Origin: a virus
IMG/VR virus record: IMGVR_UViG_3300045988_142996
Location: 1-64,000 of that record
Reading direction: 5' to 3' (one strand)
Length of the DNA: 64,000 bases
Below the pieces are notes generated by a model that was not told the origin of the DNA, made no database searches, and worked only from the letters and a program-made list of their open reading frames with translations. A program made the position numbers and the translations under genes. Below are positions 2,968 to 64,000 of this stretch, piece after piece; the first letter of the stretch is position 1; the number at the start of each line of letters is the position of its first letter.

Positions 2968-2973
2968 TAGCCT

Positions 2974-3282: not shown

Positions 3283-3320
3283 ATTGTGTTCTCCTTTGCA
3301 TTAAAACAGTGAATATTCGT

Positions 3321-5472: not shown

Positions 5473-6132
5473 TGTTCTAGCACCAATCCAGCACCGGGTC
5501 AAAATATTACAATTCGAGCTACGTTTTCTTCCATATATTTCCATTTATAGTTATGCACTTTTCATTCACGATTTTTCTTTTTTAAAATGCAGAAAGTTCC
5601 AGTCGGTTCGTGCATTTTTGCGTCAAAACGTAAAAAAGAGCCGTCCTCCCGATTCCTCGAGAGAACAGCTCCATGGTATTGGCTTTATAAAAATCAGATA
5701 GAAATGGTGTTGCAGACGTCGATCAGGACGGGGTCGAGGGTCTTGGTCAAAAATCGCCTGTCGTAAAATATCGCAGCAGTTCGTCATATTTTGCACATCT
5801 ATCTATCACCACTCCATTTCCGTTCTATATTTTTATACGTCGATACGCGTTTGCCTGCTTTTCTGCAAAAAAGTTTCTTTTTAATCACCAATGGAGAAAT
5901 GCTGCGGCTCAAAAAATAAAAGTCCCTGCAACTTTCGCTCACAGCTCCCACTCAGAGCCATAAACGATCGCTGCAGGGGCTTTCTTCATATTACCGGTCA
6001 CTCCATTTTGAATTATATAGACAGTTCCTGCCTTCGGTGAGTGCCAGATGAAACTTTTTCAGGCGGCTTTGGAGAAACATTCAGGTTGGATTCGTATACG
6101 CATCCATTCTCCTTTCCCGCCCGGAATCTCAA

Positions 6133-25329: not shown

Positions 25330-26385
25330 ATGTCCGATTCCGAAATGCTTTCCACTCAGTCTTCCAGCTGCGAGATCACATTATGTGATATTCCACTGGA
25401 CTTCGGCGATGCAATGCGATTCCATAAAATTGAATTTCCTGAGCAAGCCGGACTTGCGGCCAACTTGCTTCTTCGGCTTGTTCCTGCTGAACTCGCAGTG
25501 GGGGCAGCATCGAGCACCTATGTTCTTCGGTTTCCAAAAGGTATTCAGGGTTCTCTTATGAACTTGCATCAGGGTGGACAGTCTACCGTTATGAAGGATG
25601 CTACCGGACATTTTGTAGGAACTGCATCGTTATATCGCACTGATCCGGTATCACTGGCAACTTTCCAGGTGTTTAGCATTGCATCTTTTGCGACAGGACA
25701 GTATTTTCTTGCAGACATCAGCTCAAAACTCACCGAAGTCAATAAGAAGCTAGATGACCTTCTTGCATTTCTGCAGACCTCAAAGCGCACAGAACTTCTC
25801 TCCGAGCTGACGTTTGTGAAATATGCATTGGCAAATTATTCAACGATTATGCTTAATGATGCTCAGTGCATTGCAACGATTGGAAATCTTCAGCGTGCAA
25901 AAACCAAAGCGATTGCTGATATAGAGTTTTATACCGAGCAGCTCGAGAGTGCAGTCGCTGGCAAGTCGAATGAGAGCCAAGCTCAAATTGTTTTGCAGAA
26001 TAAGCAGGGGGTTGATCTCGCCTCTCAACTTTATGCTATCAGCGGAATTATGGAAACCTACTATTCACAAAATTGGAACGAGTCCTATCTTGCAAATATC
26101 AAAGCGGATGCCAAACCTCTTTTCGCTCTTACGCAAAACCGCATGATTGGTGCTTTGAGAACATTCTCTGATAAGGTGACCAAAGAGCTTGAGGCCCGGA
26201 AGAAAAATCCTCTTACTAAAAACGAGGTTTCCAAAAAAGAGTGCGAAGTTCTGCGAGTATGTGACGCTCTAAATTCTCAAGCTGAATCTCCGCTTCTTAT
26301 TTTGATGACGGATGCTCTGAATAAGCCTTCAAGGGAAACAGAGCTTTATCTTCGTCCAGACGGTAGTGTCTACCAAAAGATTTAA
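25330..26385 (+). CDS. Unknown 351-aa protein (first gene of the opposite-strand accessory cassette)
   Basis: A strong RBS GAGGAGG-N7-ATG. The N-terminal third looks beta-rich and the C-terminal two thirds are long helices. No family recognised by eye. Confidence 0.85.
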   Translation: MSDSEMLSTQSSSCEITLCDIPLDFGDAMRFHKIEFPEQAGLAANLLLRLVPAELAVGAASSTYVLRFPKGIQGSLMNLHQGGQSTVMKDATGHFVGTASLYRTDPVSLATFQVFSIASFATGQYFLADISSKLTEVNKKLDDLLAFLQTSKRTELLSELTFVKYALANYSTIMLNDAQCIATIGNLQRAKTKAIADIEFYTEQLESAVAGKSNESQAQIVLQNKQGVDLASQLYAISGIMETYYSQNWNESYLANIKADAKPLFALTQNRMIGALRTFSDKVTKELEARKKNPLTKNEVSKKECEVLRVCDALNSQAESPLLILMTDALNKPSRETELYLRPDGSVYQKI

Positions 26386-31341: not shown

Positions 31342-32658
31342 TCACCCCTTTTGCTTAATATCCGGTTCCAACAAGACAACGGCGATCGTAAGCTCCTTTG
31401 TCGGTTTTGTTTTCGACCAGAACTTAAGTGCGCCATCCAACGCCTGACAGGTCCCATATAGGCCTGCTGCGATCGCAGATGGGACATCGTCCGGCTCGAC
31501 AGTTGCGATCGGAACCAGAAACGCCGTGCATTCCGCTTTTTCGAGCGTACAGGAATATGCGGCATCCGAATCACTTTTGCTCCACCTCGTCACGGGGATC
31601 TTCACAAGTTGTGAACCGATAACCCCTCCGTTATAGGAGGTTGTGATGCTGTCCAGCAGTTTGACTACGTTCGTTTCGCTGGTCTTTGCAGCATTTGCGC
31701 TGGTGGCGGCTCCCGACTCACTCGCCTTTGCGGCGGTTGCGCTAGATGCAGCCTCGGCGGCACTGCTCTGAGATGCCGTGGCACTGGAATTTGCTTTTGT
31801 CGCACTGCCAGCGGCATTTGTCTCGCTGACTTTAGCCGCATCGGCACTGGTAGCCGACTCTGTTGCCGAGTTCTTTGCGTTCTTCTCTGACGACTCCGCA
31901 GCGGTTGCGGCTTCGGTAGCAGCATTGGCGCTGGTAGCAGCATTTGACTCGCTAACTTTAGCGGCTTGCTCACTACTCGAAGCGGCAGTTTGACTGACCT
32001 TTGCCGCACGGGCACTGGTTGCCGCTGCTTCTGCGCTTGTGCCGGACGAATCTGCGTAGGATTTTGCGTTCCGCTCGGCATTGGCGGCTTCGGCAGCACT
32101 TCGTGAAGCAGCCGCTGCTGCATCTTCTGCCCCGGTCACCAGCGTACCGGAATAGATCATCAGGTCGTTCTTCAGATGCGTCAGATAATCCACAATCTCC
32201 GGTATATCCCCACCTTCGTAGGGTTCCAAACCTTCAAGCACAGTTCCTGCGCCGAGGGTGGTGTGGTAAGCCTTCTGGACGACCCCGTCGACATCCGTCA
32301 TAAAGCAGTTCACCACGAACAGAACGGTTCCTTTAACCATCGTAGCATCTGCGGCCACGGTCCAGATAAAGCAGAAGCTGTCAGTCTCCACGGTCTTTTC
32401 CGTTACCGTAAAATAATTGATGTCGCCGTCCGCATTCTGGTAGTTGATCCTGATGCAAAATTCGGACAAGTCAGACCCATGATAAAAGCGATTCATCCGG
32501 AACCGCACGCGGTTCACATCCTTGTCTCCTTCTACGCCCAGAACAACGCCTCGTTCAGGAACGGTGATGATACGCAAATGCTCGTCAATGATGAACGAAA
32601 GCTCGTCATCGCATCCTGCCTGATTTGCTGATTCCAGCAGCTCGTCAATACTCGCCAT
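31342..32658 (-). CDS. Fibre / BppU-like protein with a long Ala/Ser/Thr-rich repeat stalk (438 aa)
   Basis: The N-terminal ~150 aa is paralogous to 32673..33128. This is followed by about 170 aa of ...SAEAAATSARAAKVSQTAASSSEQAAKVSESNAATSANAA... repeats. Confidence 0.6.
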   Translation of the reverse strand: MASIDELLESANQAGCDDELSFIIDEHLRIITVPERGVVLGVEGDKDVNRVRFRMNRFYHGSDLSEFCIRINYQNADGDINYFTVTEKTVETDSFCFIWTVAADATMVKGTVLFVVNCFMTDVDGVVQKAYHTTLGAGTVLEGLEPYEGGDIPEIVDYLTHLKNDLMIYSGTLVTGAEDAAAAASRSAAEAANAERNAKSYADSSGTSAEAAATSARAAKVSQTAASSSEQAAKVSESNAATSANAATEAATAAESSEKNAKNSATESATSADAAKVSETNAAGSATKANSSATASQSSAAEAASSATAAKASESGAATSANAAKTSETNVVKLLDSITTSYNGGVIGSQLVKIPVTRWSKSDSDAAYSCTLEKAECTAFLVPIATVEPDDVPSAIAAGLYGTCQALDGALKFWSKTKPTKELTIAVVLLEPDIKQKG

Positions 32659-32672: not shown

Positions 32673-33128
32673 TCAAAGATTATCGTTTACAAGCCCTTCC
32701 AGACTCACACCATTTCCGATAGTGGTCCCAAATGCCTGTTCGATTTTTCCGTTTGCTCCTCTTTTCACGCAATAGACAGTGAATTGCACAGTGCCTTTGT
32801 AGGAGACCACGTCTTTCCCCACGATCCACGTGAAGCTGATTGCATCATCAGTGACCGTTTTGTCCACCGCATCAAAGCCGCCACGCTCATTCTCGGCATT
32901 ATCGTAAAGAACTTGGATCTCAAAGTCCGAAAGATCGGTTCCACGATAATACCGTGACATCCGGAACCGGACGAGATTCACGTCTTTGTCTCCCTCTACG
33001 CCCAGAACAACGCCTCGTTCGGGAACTGAGATCAGTCGAAGGTCTTTGTCGATCACAAAGCACAGTTCTTCTTCATCCCGATTCGGCTCGACCATGGCTG
33101 CCAGAACTTCTTCCACACTCGCCATCAC
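32673..33128 (-). CDS. BppU-N-like protein (151 aa), paralog of the N-terminus of 31342..32658
   Basis: ISVPERGVVLGVEGDKDVNLVRFRMSRYYRGTDLSDF compares with ITVPERGVVLGVEGDKDVNRVRFRMNRFYHGSDLSEF. Confidence 0.6.
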   Translation of the reverse strand: MMASVEEVLAAMVEPNRDEEELCFVIDKDLRLISVPERGVVLGVEGDKDVNLVRFRMSRYYRGTDLSDFEIQVLYDNAENERGGFDAVDKTVTDDAISFTWIVGKDVVSYKGTVQFTVYCVKRGANGKIEQAFGTTIGNGVSLEGLVNDNL

Positions 33129-35750: not shown

Positions 35751-38513
35751 TTATTTCTTCAGTGCATCATAAATCGTGGATTTCGGAACATTACAGGCTT
35801 CAGCAACTTCGGCATAGCTGTAACCCATGTCAAGCATTGCTCGTGCTTTGCTCAATTTGGCATTAGAAAGCGTTGTCGATGCTTTCGGCATTGCGCGTTT
35901 GATGATTTCAGAAGAATCAGAACTGTTCAGAAACTTCGTCAACATCGAATCCGAAATTGCATGATTCTGAACAGCTTCCCATTCCTTGTCCGTAAAGACG
36001 ATCTTGGAGTTCCGACCGCTTGCACCAACAGAATCTCGTGCACGCTGCATCTCAACAGCAGAGATCTTCTTGATCTCTTTCTTGTCGGCTTTGCGATCAA
36101 GGCCTTGTGCTTCGATTTTTGCATTGATGTTGGCGTTTGCAATAATCATGGCACGCCGTTCTTTTGGCTTGTTGGTCAGAACTGCCTGATACTTTGCTTT
36201 CAAGGACTCAACCTCTGCCGCATACTTCTTGGCCGCTGCCGGATCACGCCGGATGCCCTTCATATTGACGGCTTCCTTGCGTGCCTGATTAGTCAGAGCC
36301 TTCAGGCCATTGGCAAAGTCTGCGTACAACTCCTCCTGCTTTGTGCCAGAGGACAAGGTATGGACATCTTTGATCATAGAGATGCGACTTACCTCATCTT
36401 CAGCCACATGCACATTACCCTTCTCGTCCTTGTAGGTACGGCCACTCTCCTTGTAGATGAGTTCGCCGGTCTCCTTGTCGATACGTGTGCTGCCACGACG
36501 CTCAGGAACACGGACGGTCTGCTTGCGACGGGACAGCAGCGTGGATGCACCACCGTACTTCGTATTGCCGTCTTCATCCACCCGGATCTGGTACTTCTGC
36601 TTCAGCTCCTGGATGCCGTTTTCACGCTCAGACCTCTTGTAGTCCAGGCCATGCTTCTCAGCATCAATGACAACCATAGAGTGGCGCACTGCTCGCTCCA
36701 GATCTTCTGGCGTTGCACCACGCAAGGTCATGTCCGTAATCAGGTTCGAGATAATTCCCATCTCTTTCTGCTTCTCATCCTTCTTCATGAGACGAACATT
36801 GTTGGGGTTGCCTTCCGGAACAGAGTAGGCAGTCTTGGGGTCGAAGTTCTTCAGACCAGGAAGCGGATTCGTTGAGTTGATACGAACCTTATCGCTCATC
36901 GGGATAGCCATAACGGTATCGCCATCAAAGTCTGCACCAGACAGCCGCTCTGCGACCTTCGCGTTGATGCCGATGGCGTCCTGAATCGCGCCCAAATTGC
37001 GCTTACCACTGAGGTTCTTGTTGTTGACAGTCACAACGGGAATCTCAAATGTGCCTGCATGCGGATAACGAATCAGTGCAAGCTGTGTTCCGTTCTCGTA
37101 TGTAGGGCAATAGGCTTCTTTCTCACTGATGTTATTCAGCGGAAGGATGACCTTCGTTGACTGACCGGGAAATGCAGACGCTTTCAGGGTCATGGACGTG
37201 CCTTCACACTGGTCAGCAAAGTCCATCAGCATTTTTTTCTTGACAGTCGGGTTCGTGTAATGCATGATCTCATCGTACTCGGCCTTATAGTCAGCCATAG
37301 TGAGGTCAAGCTGGCGTTTGATGAGCGGAACGGGCTGCTTGGACAGGAACTGCGAAGAAACATTCTTCGACATCGTGTCCCAGTCGCCTTCTTCTTTCAG
37401 CTTATTGATGGGAGAAAGATGCTCTTTGCCGTCGGCACCAATATAAGTGCTCTGGCCGTTCGCTTTGATGGCTGCACCGAACGGGTTATCCGGATCATCC
37501 TTGATGGGCTTGAAGACCTTCATCTTGGGTGTACCAGAAGGCTTATTGGTATTAAAGACAATATCAACACCCTTCGGCAGGTCATCAGAATATACGGCCA
37601 TGCCCTTCAGGTAGTGGCTGTCATCCACCATGATACGAACCTGCGCATAATGGGAATTGCCCAAATCCAAATCAGGAACGCCGCGGCGAATCTCCATAAC
37701 ACCGTCTTTTGCAAGGCCGCCTTCGTCGCCATAGCGCACCGCCACACGATCAGAGCTCATGCTCACAGGACGCTGTAGTTTTTTGAAGCTGTCTCCACCA
37801 TCGTCGGAATGATAGTCGCCAAGGGACTGAATCTCACTCTGATGCTTGTAGGCATAGCTCTGATCGAACTCAGGCTTGCCCAGAACGGTGATATTTGTCT
37901 GCTGACGAGGATTGGTCGGCTGCTTGATGCCGACACCATAGCGCTTATAGCCGTATTCCGCTTCCAGAATATAAACAGCCTCATCCAGCTTGCCTTCCGA
38001 GACGCCAAGCGTAAGGTTGGAACCTTCGGAAATATCAATCATGCCTTTCTTGTCAACTTCCTTCTTCAGGACGTCAGCAATCTTTTCAGCCTGATCTTTC
38101 TTGGTTCCAACGCCATTCTGGTACATGGAGCGGACCGTCGATTCGGACAGGTTCAACTTCTGGCCGATTTCAGTCCAGCCTTTGCCATCTTCTTTCAGTG
38201 CACGAATCTGATCCCACTGCAGCGCTTTACGGTCATGGCCGGCTTTGGCTCTTGCCACACGAAACTCGCTGGCACCCAGCTTGTACTCATCGGGCAGAGT
38301 CGCATTGATGGCCTCAAGGATCTCATTTTCACTCATGCCCTGAGTCTTCAGCTTATCGATTCGAGAAATAAAATCGCCCGAATGCTGGTAAGGCGTCTCG
38401 CCACTACCCCAGGGATAACGGCCAGAATGACGCTTGGTGCCGTAATGCTCCAGCGTATCGCCGCCGTATTCAATACCAAAATAGCTCGAAATATCTTTTT
38501 CAACTGGATTCAT
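35751..38513 (-). CDS. 920-aa protein with a two-barrel RNA-polymerase-type catalytic signature (YonO/RdRP-like?) and HTH domains
   Basis: LALIRYPHAGTFEIP...AERLSGADFDGDTVMAIPM. The DFDGD is at nt 36918-36932, verified by hand. There are two HTH-like segments and an N-terminal HYGTKRHSGRYPWGSG motif. Confidence 0.5.
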   Translation of the reverse strand: MNPVEKDISSYFGIEYGGDTLEHYGTKRHSGRYPWGSGETPYQHSGDFISRIDKLKTQGMSENEILEAINATLPDEYKLGASEFRVARAKAGHDRKALQWDQIRALKEDGKGWTEIGQKLNLSESTVRSMYQNGVGTKKDQAEKIADVLKKEVDKKGMIDISEGSNLTLGVSEGKLDEAVYILEAEYGYKRYGVGIKQPTNPRQQTNITVLGKPEFDQSYAYKHQSEIQSLGDYHSDDGGDSFKKLQRPVSMSSDRVAVRYGDEGGLAKDGVMEIRRGVPDLDLGNSHYAQVRIMVDDSHYLKGMAVYSDDLPKGVDIVFNTNKPSGTPKMKVFKPIKDDPDNPFGAAIKANGQSTYIGADGKEHLSPINKLKEEGDWDTMSKNVSSQFLSKQPVPLIKRQLDLTMADYKAEYDEIMHYTNPTVKKKMLMDFADQCEGTSMTLKASAFPGQSTKVILPLNNISEKEAYCPTYENGTQLALIRYPHAGTFEIPVVTVNNKNLSGKRNLGAIQDAIGINAKVAERLSGADFDGDTVMAIPMSDKVRINSTNPLPGLKNFDPKTAYSVPEGNPNNVRLMKKDEKQKEMGIISNLITDMTLRGATPEDLERAVRHSMVVIDAEKHGLDYKRSERENGIQELKQKYQIRVDEDGNTKYGGASTLLSRRKQTVRVPERRGSTRIDKETGELIYKESGRTYKDEKGNVHVAEDEVSRISMIKDVHTLSSGTKQEELYADFANGLKALTNQARKEAVNMKGIRRDPAAAKKYAAEVESLKAKYQAVLTNKPKERRAMIIANANINAKIEAQGLDRKADKKEIKKISAVEMQRARDSVGASGRNSKIVFTDKEWEAVQNHAISDSMLTKFLNSSDSSEIIKRAMPKASTTLSNAKLSKARAMLDMGYSYAEVAEACNVPKSTIYDALKK

Positions 38514-38514
38514 G

Positions 38515-39069
38515 TCAGCACCCCATCTTCAGCTTTGCAATAATCGGATCAAACTCACGGATCTTCTCCATCACAACGTTGACATCATCCGCCTCAGGTG
38601 TGGCGATAATAATATCATCAGACTGATAGATGCGATTCTCGATCTGAATTTTCTCCGGCTTCACACGATATTCCAGACAGAACAGAGCATCGTAAATCAG
38701 CAGCTGTTCCATATGCGCCGGAATCACCCCCGTTTTAAGGTCGTGGATCCGAAGAATATCATCGCGGAAACAAATCGAGTCTGCTGTCCCAAAGCAATTC
38801 TCAGAATAATAGAGCACCTGCTCAGGGGTCATGCGGAATCCAATGGCGTCGTTGACATAACTGTTCAACGTCTTCTTCGAGCGCGGCAGCTTCTGGCCAA
38901 GAGAAATGCACTTTGCTGCAAACTCGTGCAGTTCGGTGCCTTTCTGCGCAGCCATGAAGCTGGTATAGGCCGCTGCAATTTTCTCGGGATCGTAATTGAT
39001 CCAATGATACTTACTAGCGCCGAGAAATGCGTGTTGGCCTGTCAGACGCGAATGATCGTTGAAGGTCAT
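38515..39069 (-). CDS. PD-(D/E)XK nuclease (DUF2800/Cas4-like, without a Cys cluster)
   Basis: GASKYH..., GTELHEF, GTADSICF...LRIHDLKTGVIPAHMEQLLIYDAL matches D...(D/E)xK plus the QxxxY pattern. Confidence 0.6.
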   Translation of the reverse strand: MTFNDHSRLTGQHAFLGASKYHWINYDPEKIAAAYTSFMAAQKGTELHEFAAKCISLGQKLPRSKKTLNSYVNDAIGFRMTPEQVLYYSENCFGTADSICFRDDILRIHDLKTGVIPAHMEQLLIYDALFCLEYRVKPEKIQIENRIYQSDDIIIATPEADDVNVVMEKIREFDPIIAKLKMGC

Positions 39070-39331
39070 CCAAAATCTCCTCCTTATTTTCCGGGTAAAT
39101 GAACGCAGCGTAGCTCATCCGGTTCATGAGATCAACGTAGTAATCTTGATTCGGACGATGCGGTGCATTTGCAGAGCGTTTGCCTTCAAGCGCTGCCCAC
39201 TTGTCTCCGCACAAAACCAAGAGATCAGGCATTCCCTGAATCTCGTTTGGATCAATGTGCAGAACAATGCAGCCCGGAAAGCGCTCTTTGAGTTCTCTTA
39301 CCAGGTTTGTTTTGAATCGGTTCTCCAGCAT
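39014..39331 (-). CDS. VRR-NUC-type nuclease
   Basis: GMPDLLVLCGDKWAALEGKR (PD...ExK). The start was set at MLENRF behind GGAGGAG. Confidence 0.65.
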   Translation of the reverse strand: MLENRFKTNLVRELKERFPGCIVLHIDPNEIQGMPDLLVLCGDKWAALEGKRSANAPHRPNQDYYVDLMNRMSYAAFIYPENKEEILDDLQRSFASDRPTRISRR

Positions 39332-39384
39332 AAAATCTCCTCCAAAAAGAAAAAGAGCAGCGTGCAAAGACACACTCTCTCCTC

Positions 39385-39413
39385 TTCATAAAAGAGCATG
39401 TATTTTACGCGTT
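39385..39413 (-). promoter_or_regulatory. Class-1 promoter-like motif, copy L (variant CGCGTAAAAT)
   Basis: Minus strand reads AACGCGTAAAATACATGCTCTTTTATGAAGAGG. Confidence 0.4.
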
Positions 39414-39454: not shown

Positions 39455-39484
39455 AAAAGAAAAAGACGCAGATTGCTCTGCGTC
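39455..39484 (-). terminator. Rho-independent terminator
   Basis: Minus strand reads GACGCAG-AGCAAT-CTGCGTC followed by TTTTTCTTTT. Confidence 0.7.
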
Positions 39485-39507
39485 TTCGTCGTGTTTATTT
39501 GAGAATA

Positions 39508-40758: not shown

Positions 40759-41097
40759 TTATTTCTCCAAACCCATCAAATATTCCGCACTCCGATAGAC
40801 AAAATATCGCGGTGCAGGCGGTCGAACAAGTGCTTTTCTCGTGACATCTTCCATGCCAGATTGCTTTGTCCGCCACCCAATCGAGATGCAATGCCGGATA
40901 TTCCGCTCCATTCTTTCCGGATTTGCCGCGTATTTTTGCCCGAGTTGTTCGTAATAAATGTACATGTGCGCCGGCTGTTCATCCTCCAGCAAAGCATCCG
41001 TGACCATGTCGATCAGCTCACCAAGCGGATTAAATCCCATCAACCATGGTTCAATGCCGACGCTTTTCAGATAATCATAGGTTCGAGGTCGCATCAA
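40759..41097 (-). CDS. Spo0A C-terminal (DNA-binding) domain-like protein (112 aa)
   Basis: LGQKYAANPERMERNIRHCISIGW compares with the Spo0A sequence [24 protein letters not shown]. Confidence 0.55.
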   Translation of the reverse strand: MMRPRTYDYLKSVGIEPWLMGFNPLGELIDMVTDALLEDEQPAHMYIYYEQLGQKYAANPERMERNIRHCISIGWRTKQSGMEDVTRKALVRPPAPRYFVYRSAEYLMGLEK

Positions 41098-44746: not shown

Positions 44747-44777
44747 AGTAAATATCTCCTTTCAAATATGAGTTCAC

Positions 44778-44806
44778 CTCATAAAGGAGACTGTTATTTT
44801 CGCGTT
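44778..44806 (-). promoter_or_regulatory. Class-1 promoter-like motif, copy E
   Basis: Minus strand reads AACGCGAAAATAACAGTCTCCTTTATGAGG. It overlaps the stop of 44794..44955. Confidence 0.45.
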
Positions 44807-48182: not shown

Positions 48183-48196
48183 TCAAACCATCTCCT

Positions 48197-48226
48197 TTCA
48201 TAAAAGACTATGATTTTTTCGCGTCA
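48197..48226 (-). promoter_or_regulatory. Class-1 promoter-like motif, copy F
   Basis: Minus strand reads TGACGCGAAAAAATCATAGTCTTTTATGAAAGG. It overlaps the last codons of 48208..48372. Confidence 0.5.
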
Positions 48227-48699: not shown

Positions 48700-48778
48700 T
48701 GGTGGGTCAGGCAGGATTTGAACCCGCGATCAAGCAGTTATGAGCTGCCAGCTTTTAACCCGGCTAAGCTACTGACCC
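48700..48778 (-). tRNA. tRNA with anticodon CAT (Met, or Ile2 if lysidine-modified), with an encoded CCA
   Basis: Folded by hand: GGGTCAG-TA-GCTT-AGCCGGGTTAA-AAGC-T-GGCAG-CTCATAA-CTGCT-TGATC-GCGGG-TTCAAAT-CCTGC-CTGACCC-A-CCA. The acceptor stem is a perfect 7 bp and the T-loop is GGTTCAAATCC. The anticodon stem lacks the three G:C pairs of initiator tRNAs. Confidence 0.85.
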
Positions 48779-56020: not shown

Positions 56021-56944
56021 TCAGATCTTATTGACAATTGGGCCATCAACATTGAAATGCAGCACGACCGAGCGGTCACCCTGCATCTTGTCCAGACCGA
56101 ACTTCACACAGTTGGACAGTTCTTCATTGTTGGGATCATAGACCCAGCCAACGAGCTGACCGTTGGGCTTATAGATCTGCTGGCCATTGTTGTAGCGACC
56201 GATCATGCGGTAAACTTCGTTCAGGAAAAGATAACCGCGCATCCGAAGCTGGTTGTTTGCATGCGTCTCCACCATGCTCAGAAATGCTTTGTTCAGCTGC
56301 GCGTCCGGTTCCCAGGTATCGACCATCTCATCAAAAATCAGGTCGTACGGCGAGTGTTCGCCATCGGTTTCATCAATGTAGGACTTGACAACCTCCTCGG
56401 TGCCATCTTCGTTGATGACCTTAGACTCAACTTCAACTGCCTTAACGCCATGCTCGATCTCGTGCTGGACACGCTCACCAAAGCGCTCCGACACACGACC
56501 CTTGTACTCGTTGAATGCCTTGTCCAGCGTAACATAAGCTGCGGTCAGAGCAGCATTGCGCTTCTGCAGGATATGATTCGAGCCAACCATGCAGCCGAGA
56601 GACAGAGTACCCAGGATGACTGCCGGCGCATAGAGCTTTACCAGCTTCACGCCGGTCTGCACATAAACCGTGGTCAGATCCTTCTTGGCGTCCTCTTCAG
56701 TGTACTCGGCACCTTCCTTGACCTCAACCTTGCCATCCTTCACATCGTGGATGGTTGCAACGCTGGACTGGTGCGCAGACATAATATCATTGACCTTCAG
56801 AGTTGCCTTGCAGGCCATGACAGCGCTGGTCACAGCACCAACGGCACCGCAGACCATCAGAATCTCAGGGCTATGCTTGCCCAGCTTGAACTTTGCTTTT
56901 GCTGCAAAACGGCTTGCTTTGACCATAATATCGTTCATTTTCAT
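56021..56944 (-). CDS. Membrane-anchored protein, paralog 1 of 3 (307 aa)
   Basis: HSPEILMVCGAVGAVTSAVMACKATLK ... KRNAALTAAYVTLDKAFNEYKGRVSERFGE. It is homologous to 58053..58808 and 59407..60156. Confidence 0.7.
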   Translation of the reverse strand: MKMNDIMVKASRFAAKAKFKLGKHSPEILMVCGAVGAVTSAVMACKATLKVNDIMSAHQSSVATIHDVKDGKVEVKEGAEYTEEDAKKDLTTVYVQTGVKLVKLYAPAVILGTLSLGCMVGSNHILQKRNAALTAAYVTLDKAFNEYKGRVSERFGERVQHEIEHGVKAVEVESKVINEDGTEEVVKSYIDETDGEHSPYDLIFDEMVDTWEPDAQLNKAFLSMVETHANNQLRMRGYLFLNEVYRMIGRYNNGQQIYKPNGQLVGWVYDPNNEELSNCVKFGLDKMQGDRSVVLHFNVDGPIVNKI

Positions 56945-57977: not shown

Positions 57978-58023
57978 AGTAATAATCTCCTTTCAAGATT
58001 TGTCCAATGTAAACCTTATTGGT

Positions 58024-58052
58024 TCCATAAAGCAGGGTGAATTTTTCGCGTC
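58024..58052 (-). promoter_or_regulatory. Class-1 promoter-like motif, copy G
   Basis: Minus strand reads GACGCGAAAAATTCACCCTGCTTTATGGAAC. Confidence 0.55.
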
Positions 58053-58808
58053 TCACACGCCAAAATAGTGCGGCATTTCAACGTAATTGACAACCAGGCA
58101 GGGCTGCCCTTCTTCGTCCAGGCGAGAAGCATAGCAGGTTTCGATGTAACCGCGATCAATGTCCCAGCCCATCGTATCGCCGAGCTTCATCTCATCGAGG
58201 CCGATCAGGTCATACCACTCATTCAGACTCATACGCATATCATCCCGCAGTTGACGGTTGAAGTCATTGACCGCCTTGTCGATCTGGTTCTTCGTGGCAA
58301 CAAAATATCTGCTGCTCAGCGAGTCAAAGCACTTGATCTGACCGGCAGCATTGTTCACAACCAGTGACTTCGGCTCCGGCACCTTCTGCTGCTGTTCGAT
58401 GGCCACCGACTGTCGAATCTCGCGCTCCTTATCCTCGCCAATGGTCTCCAGAACTTTATCGCGGTAGGAACGCATCGTGCTCTCGCTCAGAGTATAAGCT
58501 GCAGTCAAAGCAGCATTGCGACGTGCATTCACACCGCTGGCACCGATGATGCAGGCAGTCGATACGGCGAAGCTGACCACCGTCGGAATATAAACCGGCG
58601 CTGCCGTCTTGATGATCTCCTTTGCTTCCAGCTTTTCAACACCCAGTTCCTGCTTCTTATCCTCCAGCAGGATTATGGCTTTCGGCGTCGCCTTGATGGC
58701 AAAAATCACGGAGGATGCTGCCCCCGCGATGCCTAGGCCCACAAGAATCTCCGGGCTGTGCTGTTTTGCGCCCTTCCAGAGTGCGTTTGCAAATGCTTTG
58801 AGTTTCAT
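58053..58808 (-). CDS. Membrane-anchored protein, paralog 2 of 3 (251 aa)
   Basis: The start was set at MKLKAFANAL, after terminator 58833-58867 and AGGAGG. It contains HSPEILVGLGIAGAASSVIFAIKATPK ... RRNAALTAAYTLSESTMRSYRDKVLETIGE. Confidence 0.7.
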   Translation of the reverse strand: MKLKAFANALWKGAKQHSPEILVGLGIAGAASSVIFAIKATPKAIILLEDKKQELGVEKLEAKEIIKTAAPVYIPTVVSFAVSTACIIGASGVNARRNAALTAAYTLSESTMRSYRDKVLETIGEDKEREIRQSVAIEQQQKVPEPKSLVVNNAAGQIKCFDSLSSRYFVATKNQIDKAVNDFNRQLRDDMRMSLNEWYDLIGLDEMKLGDTMGWDIDRGYIETCYASRLDEEGQPCLVVNYVEMPHYFGV

Positions 58809-58832
58809 TGTTGTTCTTACCTCCTGAAAATA

Positions 58833-58867
58833 TAAAAGAAAAGAGCCGCAGCTTTCGCCACGACTCT
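58833..58867 (-). terminator. Rho-independent terminator (dispersed hairpin family, variant)
   Basis: Minus strand reads AGAGTCGTGGCGAAAGCTGCGGCTCT followed by TTTCTTTTAT. Confidence 0.65.
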
Positions 58868-58877
58868 CGTCTTGCAC

Positions 58878-59120
58878 TTAAATGTGCCCGGTCTCCACCA
58901 TATTCTTGAACCGGATCTCGCTTTCCTGTTCGATCATGATTTCATCCTTGTGAAGGATGTCCCAACGATACCGAACATACTCATACAGTCGAACCGGCTG
59001 TAAAGCAATCGTAATCGCCAACCCCATCAGGGTATAGATCACCTGCTTTGCACACCGCTTCAACTGATTCCATGTCAGTTTGTCGATTTCCTTCCAGAAC
59101 TCGTAATCATAATTGTGCAT
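58878..59120 (-). CDS. Hypothetical protein (80 aa)
   Basis: The start was set at MHNYDYEFW behind AAAGGAG. Confidence 0.5.
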   Translation of the reverse strand: MHNYDYEFWKEIDKLTWNQLKRCAKQVIYTLMGLAITIALQPVRLYEYVRYRWDILHKDEIMIEQESEIRFKNMVETGHI

Positions 59121-59150
59121 AATAAAATCTCCTTTCAATTTGTGGATTCT

Positions 59151-59179
59151 TCCATAATGCAGAGAGATTTTTTCGCGTC
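59151..59179 (-). promoter_or_regulatory. Class-1 promoter-like motif, copy H
   Basis: Minus strand reads GACGCGAAAAAATCTCTCTGCATTATGGAAG. Confidence 0.55.
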
Positions 59180-59184
59180 TTGAC

Positions 59185-59213
59185 GAAAAGAAAGAGAGGC
59201 ATCACTGCCCCTC
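59185..59213 (-). terminator. Rho-independent terminator
   Basis: Minus strand reads GAGGGGCA-GTGA-TGCCTCTC (one mismatch) followed by TTTCTTTTC. It includes the stop codon of 59202..59366. Confidence 0.55.
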
Positions 59214-59366
59214 AGACTTTTTGCTCTCGGCGAGCTTCTTATCGACTGCTTCGTCGATTCGTGCATCCAGGTCTTTGTCCTCGGCATAATCCTGCAGTAT
59301 CGTGCCGATAAAGCCTACGACCATGCCTGCCATGCCCAGAATTCTCCAAATGTTCGTCTTATTCAC
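59202..59366 (-). CDS. Small membrane protein (54 aa)
   Basis: The GTG start lies behind AAGGAGGTG-N6. TM segment ILGMAGMVVGFIGTIL. The track ORF over-extends across motif I. Confidence 0.45.
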   Translation of the reverse strand: MNKTNIWRILGMAGMVVGFIGTILQDYAEDKDLDARIDEAVDKKLAESKKSEGQ

Positions 59367-59380
59367 AAGTCTCACCTCCT

Positions 59381-59409
59381 TCATAATGGCCCTGGTATTT
59401 TTCGCGTCA
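59381..59409 (-). promoter_or_regulatory. Class-1 promoter-like motif, copy I
   Basis: Minus strand reads TGACGCGAAAAATACCAGGGCCATTATGAAGG. The TGA is the stop of 59407..60156. Confidence 0.5.
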
Positions 59410-60156
59410 GAACGGCTGTCCCGGCTCATAATTTTCCCAATCCTTCACAGGATCGGCCCAAGGGCTGAAGTAATATACTGTCAGGCCATCGTCTGTTTTC
59501 TGTTCATCGCATTCCACATCCAGCCAGAAGTATTCCCATTCATCCACCATCTGGTCGATGCACCAGCCACGCGATTCCGGATCTGGCTGATAATCAAGAC
59601 CCAGCAATTCGCACCATGCTTCAAGCGAAACACCACCGTCCAGAGCCAACTTCTTGTTCAACATATAGGCAGCTTCATAAACTTGAGCCATCGTTGCATT
59701 GAAATATCTTTTCGTGTACGGCTCGTAAAAGAGCTTTATCGCATCGCCATTTTTGTCAAGAGGCATTTCTTCGACTTTTCGATGAATATCATGCTCCATC
59801 TCTTCGCCGACCTGCTCTGCTACCTTTTTGCGATAGGCACTGTAGGTCTGCTGAACCGCAATGTATGCCGCCATGAGCTCTTTCTGGGTCTTTTTGTTCA
59901 GGCAGTTCGAGCCCATAATGCAGGCAATCGTGCCAACGCCCACGACAGCGGCCAGAATATAATAACGCCAGCATGTCTCGACCGTTTCCTTCCTGGTCAT
60001 GGGTTCATTTTGGTTCAGGTCGATCAGGCTTTGTGCCTTCGTAGTAGCTTTTGCCGTCTCAACAGCCGTCACCACCACGCCTGCAGCAGCGACCACAGAC
60101 AGGATCGTTGCGCCGTGCTTGCTGATGTACGAGACAATCTTTTTGCTCAGTTTCAT
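59407..60156 (-). CDS. Membrane-anchored protein, paralog 3 of 3 (249 aa)
   Basis: The start was set at MKLSKKIVSY behind AAAGGAG. It contains HGATILSVVAAAGVVVTAVETAKATTK ... KKTQKELMAAYIAVQQTYSAYRKKVAEQVGE. Confidence 0.7.
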   Translation of the reverse strand: MKLSKKIVSYISKHGATILSVVAAAGVVVTAVETAKATTKAQSLIDLNQNEPMTRKETVETCWRYYILAAVVGVGTIACIMGSNCLNKKTQKELMAAYIAVQQTYSAYRKKVAEQVGEEMEHDIHRKVEEMPLDKNGDAIKLFYEPYTKRYFNATMAQVYEAAYMLNKKLALDGGVSLEAWCELLGLDYQPDPESRGWCIDQMVDEWEYFWLDVECDEQKTDDGLTVYYFSPWADPVKDWENYEPGQPF

Positions 60157-60172
60157 TGTTGTTCTCCTTTTA

Positions 60173-60523
60173 TCAATGATGGGTTCTCCAACGGTTTCGG
60201 TTTGATGCATTCACAATGCCTCTCGGATATCCAACCATAAGACAGGCCGGCACAGCGTCATTGCGCAGAAATATCCGTCCCGCCCTCTCATGAACTCCGA
60301 GGGCGAGCTTGTTGGCATCAATAAAATCCCGGATGCCTGCAACGATCGCGCGGCTGTTGGGCCGATCCTGTTCATTCAGTACAACTTCCATAATGAACGC
60401 TCCACTGTAAACAAATTCGCTGACAATGCTGCGAACATCCACCTTGTCAACTTTTTGCTTTGGCTCATAGGAAGCATTGTACATTGCCGTGAATTCTTCC
60501 GAGCTGATGCTTTTCAGTTCCAT
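60173..60523 (-). CDS. Hypothetical protein (116 aa)
   Basis: The start was set at MELKSISSEEF behind AAAGGAG. Confidence 0.55.
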   Translation of the reverse strand: MELKSISSEEFTAMYNASYEPKQKVDKVDVRSIVSEFVYSGAFIMEVVLNEQDRPNSRAIVAGIRDFIDANKLALGVHERAGRIFLRNDAVPACLMVGYPRGIVNASNRNRWRTHH

Positions 60524-60534
60524 GATTGCTCCTT

Positions 60535-60759
60535 TCACAGCACACCGGCCTTCGACAAAATATCAATCAGGGCTTCCTGGGTCATTTCGGCGTCGATATC
60601 CAAGTGTACTCTGACCATTTTAGTTTTGTCTGTGTAGTTTACCCGAAGGTCGTTCAGCTGAACGAGGGCGTCGATTCCCTGCTTTTTGATTGCTTTGCCT
60701 ACTGCTGCCGAAACCAGCCGGCGCAAAAATCCAGATTGAATGTGCATAATGTCCTCCAT
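60535..60759 (-). CDS. Hypothetical protein (74 aa)
   Basis: RBS AAAGGAGAACC upstream of the ATG. Confidence 0.55.
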   Translation of the reverse strand: MEDIMHIQSGFLRRLVSAAVGKAIKKQGIDALVQLNDLRVNYTDKTKMVRVHLDIDAEMTQEALIDILSKAGVL

Positions 60760-60810
60760 GATGGTTCTCCTTTCAAAGTTAAAAATAAAAAAGGCAGAGG
60801 GCGAATCTTT

Positions 60811-60996
60811 TTAGAATTCGTACTCTTCCTGATTTGCTTTCTGAATTTTCTTCAGTTCCTTGCGCTCCTTCCACTTCTCCCATGCCACAATGCCGCCGAT
60901 GAGTGCGCAATACACTCCGGCGACAACGCCACACAGTTTGAAGTAAGTACCCCAAGTCCACTGCTTGTTCATAAAGTTCTTAATTGCTTTCATCAT
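60811..60996 (-). CDS. Small membrane protein (61 aa)
   Basis: The start was set at MMKAIKNF behind AAAGGAG, downstream of motif J. TM segment CGVVAGVYCALIGGIVAW. Confidence 0.5.
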   Translation of the reverse strand: MMKAIKNFMNKQWTWGTYFKLCGVVAGVYCALIGGIVAWEKWKERKELKKIQKANQEEYEF

Positions 60997-61030
60997 AGTA
61001 ATTTCTCCTTTCAATGTAAGCCCTCTTACC

Positions 61031-61059
61031 TTCATAAAGCATCGTGATTTTTTCGCGTT
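61031..61059 (-). promoter_or_regulatory. Class-1 promoter-like motif, copy J
   Basis: Minus strand reads AACGCGAAAAAATCACGATGCTTTATGAAGG. Confidence 0.55.
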
Positions 61060-61063
61060 TGGT

Positions 61064-61098
61064 AAAAAGAAAAGAGCCTACGATTTCTCGTAAGCTCT
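61064..61098 (-). terminator. Rho-independent terminator
   Basis: Minus strand reads AGAGCTTACGAGAAATCGTAGGCTCT followed by TTTCTTTTT. Confidence 0.7.
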
Positions 61099-61146
61099 TT
61101 GAGATAAGGCTAAATATCAATTCGTGTACCGGTTTCCGTTAAATCC

Positions 61147-61278
61147 TTAGTTCTTCGACGGCCGGAACAGTCCCACCAGAACCCAGATGACCAGACCAAT
61201 TGTCAGTCCGATCACTGCGGTCACAATGACCTGCCCAACCGTTACGCTCGTATTCCAGATTTTCTTCAAAATATCCAT
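61147..61278 (-). CDS. Possible 43-aa TM peptide (below the ORF-track cutoff)
   Basis: AAGGAGAAGTACG-ATG. Hand translation gives MDILKKIWNTSVTVGQVIVTAVIGLTIGLVIWVLVGLFRPSKN. It replaces track ORF 61139..61375, which runs through motif K and a terminator. Confidence 0.45.
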   Translation of the reverse strand: MDILKKIWNTSVTVGQVIVTAVIGLTIGLVIWVLVGLFRPSKN

Positions 61279-61306
61279 CGTACTTCTCCTTTTGCTTGGG
61301 CCTTAT

Positions 61307-61335
61307 CCCATAAGACGAGGAGAATTTTTCGCGTA
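61307..61335 (-). promoter_or_regulatory. Class-1 promoter-like motif, copy K
   Basis: Minus strand reads TACGCGAAAAATTCTCCTCGTCTTATGGGAT. Confidence 0.5.
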
Positions 61336-61344
61336 AAAGAAAAA

Positions 61345-61370
61345 AGAGCCTGTGATTCCTCACAAGCTCT
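61345..61370 (-). terminator. Rho-independent terminator
   Basis: Minus strand reads AGAGCTTGTGAGGAATCACAGGCTCT followed by TTTTTTCTTTT. Confidence 0.7.
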
Positions 61371-62001: not shown

Positions 62002-62256
62002 AACTCTCACCTCCTCGTATTATAAAAGAGTAGTATTTATAGACCGCTCTCCAGCGGTATGCTACACTGTATGGGATGCTGTGGATTGGTGAACACCTCC
62101 TACCGCAAAGACGGTTTGACGAAGGCTCCAACCACAGCTTCTTTGTTGAAATGTTAATCAGTTAGATACCGCCAGACGGTTTATTTAGAACGAGGTTACA
62201 AGAGCAAAGAAGTCTGTGGTCCTAAGCAGCATTGAATAATATAACGGAGGTATAAA

Positions 62257-63432
62257 ATGGTCTGTGTCGGAATTGATGTTGCCAAAGATAAGCATGACTG
62301 TTGCATTCTCGATTCGGAAGGAACGACCCTTGTCGATTGCTTTACCATTCCCAACAACATGGATGGTTTCAAAAGTCTGCTACAAACAATCCAAGACTGT
62401 TCTCAAAAATCAGACAAAATAAAAGTAGGGCTTGAGGCTACCGGACATTATAGCTACAACATCCTTGGGTTTCTTCTTGACAATGATCTGCCCGTCTATG
62501 TCATGAATCCCTTGCATACCAACCTGTATCGAAAGAGCCTCAGTCTTCGCAAAACTAAAACCGATCGTGTGGATGCAAAAACGATTGCAACTATGCTGTT
62601 GTCCGATGTAGACCTCAAGTCCTACACAGATACAGCATATCACAACGAAGAACTAAAGTCACTCACGAGATACCGATTTGATAAAGTTCAGGAACGCGCT
62701 AAACTAAAGCAGTCGGTGTCCAGATTGGTTACAATCCTGTTTCCGGAATTGGAACAGCTTGTTTCGTCTATCCACGGCACTTCAATCTACGCACTTCTCA
62801 GTGAGTATCCCGGTGCAAAGCAGATTTCAGAAGCTCATCTGACCAGATTAGCTAATATTCTCGTGAAAACATCCAGAGGCCATTACCGAAAAGATAAAGC
62901 TACTCATATCCGAGATGCAGCCAGAATATCCATTGGTTCTGTTATGCCTGCTAAGTCTTTGGAATTAAAGCACACCATTAAGCTCATTCAAGAACTTACC
63001 TCCGAAATCAATGAAATTGAAGATGCCATTCGGAAAATCATGGATGAATTGAAACCGCCGATCCTTTCGATTCCCGGAATGGGATTTCATTCTGCTGCGA
63101 TGATTCTTGCAGAGGTAGGGGATTTTTCGAATTTTAACTCTCCTGACAAAGTTTTGGCTTATGCTGGATGTTCTCCCTCCACATACCAGTCAGGAAAACT
63201 CACAAACTGCTATGCACACATGGAAAAGCGTGGCTCTCGTTATCTTCGATACGCTCTTTACACTGCAACCAAATACGTCTGTTACTGGAATCCTGTTTTT
63301 ACTGAATACCTTACCAAAAAGCAAGCTGAAGGCAAGCACTACAATGTTGCCCTATCTCATGCCACAAAGAAACTCGTACGACTGATTTACGCTTTGCAGA
63401 AGTCCGGTAAAGCATATCTTGCCGTCACTTGA
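62257..63432 (+). CDS. IS110-family transposase (same gene as 135..1310)
   Basis: The 391-aa translation is identical. Confidence 0.95.
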   Translation: MVCVGIDVAKDKHDCCILDSEGTTLVDCFTIPNNMDGFKSLLQTIQDCSQKSDKIKVGLEATGHYSYNILGFLLDNDLPVYVMNPLHTNLYRKSLSLRKTKTDRVDAKTIATMLLSDVDLKSYTDTAYHNEELKSLTRYRFDKVQERAKLKQSVSRLVTILFPELEQLVSSIHGTSIYALLSEYPGAKQISEAHLTRLANILVKTSRGHYRKDKATHIRDAARISIGSVMPAKSLELKHTIKLIQELTSEINEIEDAIRKIMDELKPPILSIPGMGFHSAAMILAEVGDFSNFNSPDKVLAYAGCSPSTYQSGKLTNCYAHMEKRGSRYLRYALYTATKYVCYWNPVFTEYLTKKQAEGKHYNVALSHATKKLVRLIYALQKSGKAYLAVT

Positions 63433-63484
63433 TTTTCTCCAGAGCCTGAGTTAAACCTAAGAACAACTTAGCTGGCGCAGCGAA

Positions 63485-63609
63485 CCCTTGACAAACCGAA
63501 ACATTCAAATGCTATTCTGTTTTTGCGAGGGTTGGCTGGGCTTGCTTTGCTGTTCTCTCCGTCACCCTCGCTACTCCAAGGCCAGCATTTGAATGATGTT
63601 TGTCAGGGG
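63485..63609 (+). ncRNA. Structured 3' arm of IS110 (equals 1363-1487); candidate bridge/seek RNA
   Basis: The same nested inverted repeats as 1363-1487. Confidence 0.35.
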
Positions 63610-63693
63610 CAGCGGATGGTTGGCGGATTTTTTCATTTTAGGGCTTGACTTTTAATAGTTAGTCTTCCATAATAGAGCAAGGTATTTTCGCGT

Positions 63694-64000
63694 CTACACC
63701 TCTTTCCGATCAAACACCGTCTCCCACCTCTCTTTCTTCATCGGTTTCATCCTGATGGCCCACATCAGCTGCCGGACAGTCACCGTCGGATAAAATCCAT
63801 TTTGATTTTTCTTTTTGGCGTGTTCGATAAAATACTCCCGGAATCCTTCGTGCATATAGATTTTGTCCGTCAGCCATGGGTCGATGGGGCCCCAGAAAGT
63901 CGCTCGGCTCTTCTCATTGAATCTTTGCTGGATGACACACAGGCCTTTCCCATGCTCTGCATACAGCGTACAAGTCTGGTACACCGGGTGATTGCATCGG
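63694..64000 (-). CDS. Hypothetical phage protein, truncated by the window end (equals 1572..1878)
   Basis: Identical to the C-terminal part of 1572..1934. Confidence 0.55.
   Translation of the reverse strand, partial: RCNHPVYQTCTLYAEHGKGLCVIQQRFNEKSRATFWGPIDPWLTDKIYMHEGFREYFIEHAKKKNQNGFYPTVTVRQLMWAIRMKPMKKERWETVFDRKEV

Follow-up and report, generated by a model that had tools for sequence, protein, structure and literature searches.

The window analysed here is a stretch of 64,000 nucleotides (nt) of viral DNA (IMG/VR record IMGVR_UViG_3300045988_142996, positions 1 to 64,000) and represents one circular or terminally redundant genome of 62,122 bp, bases 1-1878 being repeated as bases 62123-64000. 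It carries twelve copies of a bipartite element, all on the minus strand, which also carries almost all of the genes. This element is very probably a promoter, and we consider it rather likely that its cognate enzyme is the RNA polymerase encoded by the phage itself, a predicted two-barrel enzyme of 920 amino acids (aa). The original prediction had described a strand-specific, promoter-like element that acts at the DNA level, differs from sigma-A promoters and often stands in terminator–promoter cassettes. Our analysis upholds this description, and of the three candidate readers that had been proposed the 920-aa RNA polymerase-like protein is the one favoured by the comparative evidence. The closest named relative is the Faecalibacterium phage FP_oengus (about 80% nucleotide identity across 30% of a 24-kb query), with which the window shares its gene order. 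The window genome is that of an Oengus-like Faecalibacterium phage; such phages are among the most prevalent of human gut viromes, being found in up to 40% of samples (PMC5883640).

The motif and its copies in the window

The motif reads gaCGCGAAAA-N13-TATGRRR with fixed spacing and occurs exactly 12 times, always on the gene strand. We number it from the C of CGCG as position 1, which places TATG at positions 22-25 and makes G25 the predicted start of transcription. A 33-nt weight matrix scores the 12 sites at 27-42 bits, the next best position on either strand reaching 11 bits and the best of 50 shuffles 19.9 bits. A consensus from 107 unique sites of the Oengus phage group shows in addition G-1, A0, C12, T17, pyrimidines at 18-21 and purines at 26-28. 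The copies in the window are as follows.

Copy A, 1540-1572 (= 63662-63694), minus strand: 34.0 bits, G25 at 1546, IS110-family element downstream
Copy B, 2422-2454, minus strand: 31.8 bits, G25 at 2428, TACG variant
Copy C, 2896-2928, minus strand: 36.0 bits, G25 at 2902, after the terminator 2968-2941
Copy D, 3317-3349, minus strand: 36.5 bits, G25 at 3323, begins at the stop codon that closes the RinA-like gene, first member of the array
Copy E, 44774-44806, minus strand: 42.1 bits, G25 at 44780, positional orthologue at FP_oengus 22540
Copy F, 48193-48225, minus strand: 41.2 bits, G25 at 48199, upstream coding sequence ends within the motif
Copy G, 58020-58052, minus strand: 36.1 bits, G25 at 58026
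Copy H, 59147-59179, minus strand: 36.4 bits, G25 at 59153, after the terminator 59213-59194
Copy I, 59376-59408, minus strand: 31.2 bits, G25 at 59382, upstream TGA stop codon abuts the core
Copy J, 61027-61059, minus strand: 37.9 bits, G25 at 61033, after the terminator 61100-61071
Copy K, 61303-61335, minus strand: 27.1 bits, C1 at 61333 and G25 at 61309, after the terminator 61373-61342 and before a small membrane-protein gene
Copy L, 39381-39413, minus strand: 35.8 bits, G25 at 39387, CGCGTAAA variant, heads the endonuclease-exonuclease-polymerase operon

These are the places at which the original prediction had put its twelve minus-strand copies, and most of what it had said about their surroundings was borne out as well. 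Nine of the 12 fall within the block made up of 58.0-62.1 kb and 1.5-3.4 kb. A hairpin with a T-run, that is a terminator, lies immediately 5′ of copies C, H, J and K; copy L is also preceded by a terminator (39487-39462, about 50 nt upstream). The described overlaps with upstream coding sequences are found in the table of open reading frames, the TGA stop codon abutting the 5′ side of the core in copies D and I and the upstream stop codon falling within the motif in B and F and also in E, as judged against FP_oengus gp40. Two details have to be corrected. The spacer, given as N7-9, is fixed, all copies reading CGCGAAAA-N13-TATG, and the supposed decayed relic at 5597-5625 scores below 8 bits and finds no support as a site, though it does follow the strong terminator 5672-5637. 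Copy A and its twin at 63666-63694 are a single site owing to the terminal repeat of the window, and no orthologue of copy A, which the original prediction had presumed to be cut off from its gene by the IS110 insertion, was found in the relatives within 4 mismatches. The scan with the 33-nt matrix found no copy in the 30-kb structural block (5.6-35.7 kb).

The terminator hairpins form a repeat family of their own, GAGAGCCGTGGAGAAATCTGCGGCTCTT and close variants with GAAA-type loops, with members on the minus strand at the following positions; as they form such a family, promoter and terminator may have spread as modules.

2968-2941, minus strand: hairpin of the repeat family
1969-1942, minus strand: hairpin of the repeat family
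58868-58841, minus strand: hairpin of the repeat family
57628-57601, minus strand: hairpin of the repeat family
44494-44471, minus strand: hairpin of the repeat family

Geometry of the predicted start site

The strand bias seen in the window (12:0) is absolute in its relatives: in 258 related sequences we counted 664 sites on the coding strand and none on the opposite strand, and each of the 118 IMG/VR loci that were selected solely by the DNA pattern has its sites on one strand. The near-identical copies thus lie on the transcribed strand upstream of genes; they follow terminators, and they precede protein genes and tRNA genes alike.

The distance to the following gene is short. Upstream of at least 25 unrelated genes the Shine–Dalgarno sequence (SD; mostly GGAGGTGA, a full match to the anti-SD of 16S rRNA) begins at G25 or at most 4 nt after it, and the start codon of these genes stands 9-20 nt past G25. 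In the window this holds for copies C, F and I: the SD of copy C (AAAGGTGG) and that of copy I (AAGGAGGTG) begin 1 nt past G25, that of copy F (AAGGAGA) 2 nt past it, and the gene behind copy C encodes a 35-aa hydrophobic peptide. In FP_oengus a tRNA gene (2936-3005; Rfam tRNA model, 47.9 bits, above threshold) begins 2 nt past G25, and in two relatives (L116 and L117) genes for tRNA-Val and tRNA-Ile begin 5 nt past it. The FP_oengus gene has a shortened anticodon loop with an anticodon that ARAGORN is not able to name, and the same gene follows a site in another relative (L068); starting at G25, the FP_oengus transcript would have a 5′ leader of just 2 nt.

A sigma-70-family holoenzyme initiates 6-9 nt past the -10 hexamer. 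If TATGRA or one of the hexamers overlapping it served as -10, transcription would start at positions 31-35 and the SDs would be lost and the tRNAs truncated. The SDs and the tRNA 5′ ends at or just past G25 therefore argue that transcription begins at or before G25, and the earlier view of TATGRA as a -10-like hexamer has to be given up, since these boundaries put the start inside the motif and not 6-8 nt beyond it. The invariant TATG with its following purines is best read as an initiator, with the start predicted at G25 from the gene boundaries. Nor does the motif have the other hallmarks of a sigma-70 promoter: there is no -35/-10 pair at 16-18 nt with A-11 and T-7, and no register of the clostridial motif has both of these bases.

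The motif accompanies the polymerase gene

Loci around polymerase homologues were collected from IMG/VR and from GTDB genomes, among them those of Faecalibacterium, other Oscillospiraceae, Lachnospiraceae (for instance Blautia, Hungatella and Enterocloster) and Ruminococcus. The count covers the 217 loci that extend 1.5 kb or more beyond the polymerase gene on its upstream side and whose homologues are 46-99% identical to the 920-aa protein. In 214 of them a site lies 586-1440 nt upstream of the polymerase gene (median 900) and heads the endonuclease-exonuclease-polymerase operon, namely in all 102 close relatives and in 112 of the 115 relatives below 70% identity. The position of copy L is thus conserved in related phages, which the original prediction had named as a point to be checked. 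At the DNA level the motif has changed less than the protein, still reading CGCGAAAAAAACATnCCCTTTTATGAAGAGAG at 47-56% protein identity.

In the reverse direction, the polymerase gene is present within the few kb fetched in 46 of the 118 loci selected by pattern from 2.9 million viral contigs; the others are arrays of small genes whose polymerase, if there is one, would lie outside the fetched stretch. No site occurs in three Faecalibacterium phages that lack the polymerase, Roos, Mushu and Lagaffe, where the maximum score is 8.8 bits. The motif is therefore inherited together with the polymerase, the reverse direction being covered in part (46/118).

One contig (L177) that carries a 43%-identical RinA-like gene has diverged promoters of the same frame, CGCGAAATTTGCAAnnGGTATTATGCAT, at 5608-5641, 7133-7166, 7390-7417 and 10102-10136, one version lying upstream of the RinA-like gene.

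The same frame in phages of other hosts

We also inspected complete, polymerase-bearing phage genomes from other hosts, in which repeats were found by de novo k-mer counting. They share a 25-nt frame, defined by CGC at positions 1-3, C12-A13 and ATG or GTG at 23-25. Lactococcus phage P092 has nine copies matching CCCTATAATG together with a variant ending in ATA (element TTTAAGTTTTACATACCCTATAATG), and Streptomyces phage Scap1 has six to seven copies of CGCAAGtTTTACAnnCnTTATAGTG followed by AGACCCCTAC (frame CGCAAGTTTTACAnnCnTTATAGTGAGACCCC). Arthrobacter phage Circum has five copies of CGCGTAAATTACACGGGCTATAATG, of which one precedes the nuclease-exonuclease-polymerase genes by some 100 nt, and Gordonia phage Kenosha eight copies of CGCAnnAwTTACACGyCCTATAATG followed by AGACCCCTAyGAAAGGA. 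C12-A13 and (A/G)TG at 23-25 are common to all, CGC at 1-3 to all except P092. In these four phages the copies lie, as in the window, on the coding strand at the head of a small-gene block that follows the lysis genes. The frame spans five host genera and two phyla.

The exception may be informative. The upstream element of P092 reads TTTAAG, as against CGC(A/G)nn elsewhere, and the second N-terminal helix-turn-helix (HTH) of its polymerase (alignment columns ~125-150) reads GSVTN, while 8 of the 9 aligned polymerases have E-S-x-[VI]-R there (ESTVR, ESSIR, ESSVR or similar). This change in the recognition helix may show which module reads which bases; coming from a single lineage it is a hint only.

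A "50-bp motif" has been described in the genome announcement of the cluster DJ Gordonia phage Vardy, where it was read as a sigma-70 promoter with the -10 hexamer TATAAT (PMC9671010). The Vardy motif and the eight sites of Kenosha are almost certainly one element. Like our motif it is intergenic, lies in a small-gene block beside predicted terminators and precedes small membrane-protein genes; the announcement differs from the present analysis in treating one cluster, in reading the motif as host sigma-70 and in drawing no link to a phage polymerase or to Firmicute phages (PMC9671010).

The 920-aa polymerase and its operon

The genes in question and the signals around them are listed here.

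35751-38513, minus strand: 920-aa single-polypeptide RNA polymerase, the proposed reader; HTH modules at aa ~48-135 and 884-919, SGADFDGD at aa 525-532
39014-39373, minus strand: endonuclease, and 38515-39069, minus strand: Cas4/RecB-like exonuclease; co-operonic with the polymerase in all lineages
39345-39387 (approximate), minus strand: leader hairpin with T-run directly past copy L (GAAGAGGAGAGAGTGTGTCTTTGCACGCTGCTCTTTTTCTTTTT)
39462-39487, minus strand: strong hairpin with T-run, terminator upstream of copy L

PHROG 4291 ("RNA-dependent RNA polymerase") matches the 920-aa protein end to end. Pfam finds Sigma70_r4_2 (28.6 bits, near residues 110-133) and HTH_23 (34.9 bits, 891-919), and NCBIfam a weak ECF-sigma region-4 match at the C-terminus; phmmer against the PDB sequences gave no match. 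SGADFDGD (ADFDGD at aa 527-532) is invariant in 61 diverse homologues of 42-58% identity. An AlphaFold model built from the alignment has a pLDDT (predicted local distance difference test) score of 84 and replaced a single-sequence model (pLDDT 40), which was discarded. In Foldseek this model comes closest to QDE-1 and plant RDR2 (E down to 6e-9, probability 1.0) and then to Rpb1 of RNA polymerase II and the polymerase of African swine fever virus. A match among the viral models of BFVD is A7XX94 (E 6.5e-6), an uncharacterised protein of 616 aa from Thermus phage P23-45, presumably the gp64 polymerase of that phage.

The DxDGD loop and the catalytic fold of the two-barrel (double-psi beta-barrel) superfamily are thus both present, and the fold matches (QDE-1, RDR2, Rpb1 and A7XX94) together with the invariant ADFDGD indicate that the phage encodes a polymerase of its own. 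On the strength of the model we place the 920-aa protein among the two-barrel RNA polymerases with a QDE-1-like fold and not in the family of YonO, the polymerase of phage SPbeta. Membership in the latter was considered and rejected, hhalign of the 61-sequence profile against YonO giving a probability of 0.2 with the limited sensitivity of a single-sequence template. The family is large: at 50% identity it falls into 2,301 clusters, and 251 phage records in GenBank contain a member. A preprint of 2021 has already named the FP_oengus protein a putative polymerase (HHpred match to RNA-dependent RNA polymerase at 95.7%, DxDGD, HTH at both ends) and has used it as signature gene of a phage supercluster that spans Actinobacteria and Firmicutes (10.1101/842583). 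That work contains neither a promoter nor a structure model or a regulatory architecture (10.1101/842583).

The 5′ arm of the leader hairpin past copy L is the purine-rich stretch that directly follows TATG. Among 125 unique leaders the structure is kept while the sequence is not (median -16.8 kcal/mol; T-run in 85). The same arrangement of a hairpin past the promoter is found in P092, and in looser form in Circum, Kenosha and Scap1. When the leader is folded from G25 the helix begins at G25 in 88 of the 125. We rejected this boundary as a marker of the start site and do not use it as evidence, because with 30 nt more of upstream sequence an A-tract pairs with the T-run and the boundary moves.

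Rival readers and other explanations

Two smaller proteins of the window had been named as candidate readers beside the polymerase, and both are disfavoured here.

3348-3761, minus strand: RinA-like protein of 137 aa (phrog_11237)
40759-41097, minus strand: Spo0A_C-domain protein of 112 aa (Pfam PF08769, 38.8 bits)

Either of them could bind CGCGAAAA and guide the host RNA polymerase to the promoter; the 920-aa polymerase would then be the product of a middle gene and would transcribe the late block from another, unrecognised promoter, as YonO does in SPbeta. Such a scheme would remove the paradox of a polymerase that depends on its own promoter, and the plan of SPbeta fits it, where a late operon that has one start comes directly after the polymerase gene (PMC5467207). 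In all 21 close relatives looked at, the first of 5-14 sites begins no more than 4 nt past the end of the RinA-like gene. The Spo0A_C domain, with its 38.8 bits, is genuine, and Spo0A itself is an activator whose binding box, ending in CGAA, lies near -35. We nevertheless consider an activated host polymerase unlikely. The start of a sigma-70-family enzyme would remove the SDs of the at least 25 genes and the 5′ ends of the three tRNAs, the clostridial motif lacks A-11 or T-7 in every possible register, and transcripts that the host enzyme starts at copy L would hit a hairpin and T-run at once. As to the proteins themselves, no RinA-like homologue was found with the family profile in P092 and Scap1, which both have the promoter, and a 35%-identical homologue (L178) lies in a 13-kb stretch without any site. 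The RinA-like protein has no match in Pfam or NCBIfam, the RinA and ArpU models included, and where a RinA/ArpU late activator would have a single site upstream of the terminase or late operon, the window has twelve, all of them outside the structural block. Of 38 close loci 36 encode the Spo0A_C-like protein; among distant polymerase loci it was found in just 9 of 28 and 7 of 50 (16 of 78 together), and P092, Scap1, Circum and Kenosha all lack it. Being missing from most distant loci with the motif, it does not define a regulon of Spo0A 0A boxes, and the suggested resemblance to the 0A box, TGNCGAA, of which CGAA alone is shared, explains nothing across the family. As the motif is kept wherever the polymerase is, and these proteins are not, neither of the two is its general reader. 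Either could modulate the promoter in the Oengus group, which is also where the stand-alone phage protein with the C-terminal domain of Spo0A is mainly found.

Less probable still is that the sites are plain host sigma-A promoters with positions 19-24 as -10 and the upstream 8-mer as an UP-like or extended element. TATAAT is perfect in the sites of Circum, Kenosha and P092, and many actinobacterial promoters function with a -10 alone; for cluster DJ this reading has been published (PMC9671010). In the window group, however, the hexamer at 19-24 is YTTTAT without the near-universal A-11, no -35 lies at 16-18 nt, and in the actinophages the conserved TTACAC is just 4 nt away from TATAAT. The start window of sigma-A at 30-33 would be the invariant CCCT in Kenosha and Scap1 (within AGACCCCTAC), and in the clostridial phages it would fall inside or past the SD. 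A single 25-nt frame, moreover, is kept in phages of Streptomyces, Lactococcus and Faecalibacterium and is absent from three other Faecalibacterium phages. We give next to no credence to the view that the motif acts in RNA as a processing site, a stabiliser or a translation signal. The segment 17-31 is quasi-palindromic (TCCTTTATGRAGGA), small hairpins often start at 24-26, and the purine run past TATG resembles an SD. A hairpin of positions 16-21 and 26-31 was tried and rejected, base composition alone accounting for the pairing (4.42 as compared with 4.32 ± 0.10 in recombined halves of different sites). What is best conserved is CGCGAAAA, at a fixed distance from TATG across a weakly constrained spacer, as is typical of protein–DNA recognition; the sites stand right after terminators, where RNA from upstream would not arrive, and tRNAs and mRNAs both follow them.

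Proposed mode of action

In the reading that we prefer, in which the 920-aa polymerase itself reads the motif, its HTH modules, which resemble region 4 of sigma factors, would dock on duplex CGCGAAAA and on CA at positions 12-13; with G25 as +1 these docking elements would lie at -24 to -17 and at -13/-12. The T/A-rich TTTAT would then melt, and RNA would begin at or next to the invariant G of TATG and run into the purine-rich transcribed region. The promoter would drive small genes, mostly for membrane proteins, beside the integrase end and some genes of the replication region, and through copy L the endonuclease-exonuclease-polymerase operon. From this operon to the end of the 30-kb structural and lysis block there is no further copy, and one strong internal hairpin is predicted (24582-24551). 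The host-type terminators that bracket copy L would keep the host polymerase out. Once present, the phage enzyme would amplify the expression of its own operon by feed-forward and continue into the late genes, passing the hairpins on its way, so that the late genes would depend on read-through from copy L, much as SPbeta has one late operon that depends on YonO (PMC5467207). The first enzyme molecules might come from leaky host read-through on induction, or from packaged enzyme on infection.

A more specific version seems to us plausible without being probable. The polymerase with its fused HTH modules would be a holoenzyme in one chain which finds its bipartite promoter of about 30 bp alone and starts at TATG(+1), the pair of polymerase and promoter, with an almost unchanged 25-nt frame, would have been kept across the siphophages of Actinobacteria, Bacilli and Clostridia, and host-type terminators would shield the polymerase operon and the late operon from the host enzyme.

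Several points weigh against assigning the element to the phage polymerase. A self-promoter set between terminators leaves the origin of the first enzyme molecules unexplained, and if terminators do not stop the phage enzyme, cassettes of a terminator, a promoter and a single gene are difficult to account for. Positions 19-24 are a perfect TATAAT in the phages of Actinobacteria and of Lactococcus, which has been published as a host sigma-70 -10 hexamer (PMC9671010). A small specificity factor, too diverged for detection, may exist, and shares with explanations not considered here the confidence that we have not given to any of the readings above. As to the data, the start site is deduced from gene boundaries alone, most loci were gathered via the polymerase gene and the co-occurrence is therefore partly built in, and the reverse count refers to stretches of a few kb and not to whole contigs.

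Layout of the genome

Following the minus strand, the genes of the window are arranged in this order.

3758-4006 and 3348-3761, minus strand: small gene pair beside the integrase
Next: small-gene block wrapping round the window end, with an IS110-family element inside it at 135-1310
Next: replication genes, including a 1331-aa primase/polymerase
Next: thymidylate synthase (Thy1/ThyX family) and the Spo0A_C-domain protein
Next: endonuclease, exonuclease and the 920-aa protein
5.6-35.7 kb: about 30 kb of structural and lysis genes, closed by the strong terminator 5672-5637

The IS110-family transposase (135-1310, plus strand, repeated at 62257-63432; DEDD_Tnp_IS110 at 159 bits, Transposase_20) lies just downstream of copy A. 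In the middle of the late operon a 351-aa gene without a family match is encoded on the opposite strand (25330-26385, plus strand), as is FP_oengus gp68, which is arranged alike; the strong minus-strand hairpin 24582-24551 lies near it. Three open reading frames on the minus strand (58053-58877, 59407-60210 and 56021-56944) match in position three FP_oengus genes that RefSeq annotates as DUF6353. These three, which are linked to the DUF6353 genes by position only, lie inside the promoter-rich block, and two of them directly precede a promoter copy. A tRNA-Met gene (48700-48778, minus strand) in the replication region is kept in FP_oengus. The structural block contains a 153-nt direct repeat of 73% identity (32458-32610 and 32922-33074).

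Comparison with known systems and significance

Promoters specific for phage polymerases are known from the T7, N4, phiKZ/AR9 and P23-45 types. The kind of element is therefore not new; what is new is a family for which no described promoter was found, the bipartite form and the conservation across phyla. In the searchable literature we found no promoter described for the HTH-fused two-barrel polymerases, only the Vardy announcement and the preprint of 2021 having surfaced.

The closest parallel at the start site is the non-virion polymerase of phiKZ, whose late promoters read T(-3)ATG(+1), with all four bases required and the start measured (PMC7598289). Both systems have TATG over the start site and a phage polymerase of the two-barrel lineage that works without a sigma factor, start site and reader being predicted here (PMC7598289). 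The phiKZ promoters differ in having no conserved upstream element, and the enzyme has five subunits and belongs to a jumbo phage (PMC7598289). In the window, by contrast, there is a strong upstream 8-mer at a fixed 13 nt and a single 920-aa chain with fused HTH, and the start is predicted from gene boundaries. In P23-45 the monomeric two-barrel polymerases gp64 and gp96 have their own GC-rich and AT-rich promoters (PMC10770324). These are likewise monomeric two-barrel enzymes with motifs of their own before early or pre-early genes, but the motif sequences are unrelated, no sigma-4-like HTH is reported for the enzymes, one of them is fused to the tape measure protein and packaged, and host phylum and phage lineage are different (PMC10770324).

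The architecture also resembles that of T7-type promoters, with an upstream specificity element, an A/T-rich stretch and a purine start, and with many near-identical copies on one strand that overlap the ends of upstream genes. The SP6 promoter, for instance, starts at TATA|GAAG. The T7-type enzymes differ in having a Pol I-like fold and in reading 23 continuous bp and not, as predicted here, a bipartite promoter of about 30 bp.

YonO shares with the 920-aa protein a single chain distant from the cellular enzymes, a temperate Firmicute siphophage as its carrier and a gene just upstream of the late operon (PMC5467207). It differs in that no HTH modules are described and that there is one mapped start (position 2225998 of B. 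subtilis 168) and not a multi-copy promoter (PMC5467207). A scan of SPbeta (record positions 1-72,000) with the 33-nt matrix found no site. To our knowledge, the promoter sequence of YonO is undefined. In the spacer between yonN and yonK (at ~10447-10434 and ~10600, minus strand, counted within the stretch SPBc2 50001-72000) we noted two copies of TCATTTATGA(A/G)GG, which are like the TTTATG-purine initiator. One of them lies within the amplicon of the published primers for primer extension at P_YonO (PMC5467207 supplement); the candidate reads TCATTTATG|AGGG.

If our reading is true, these polymerases would have their first defined promoter. Together, enzyme and promoter would also make an orthogonal expression system ready for use in Gram-positive bacteria and gut anaerobes, and the Lactococcus, Gordonia and Arthrobacter phages with the same promoter would offer other hosts for its study. 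With a defined consensus and a predicted start, the motif would open to study how a minimal polymerase of cellular type recognises a promoter without a sigma factor, and how these phages time the expression of their genes.

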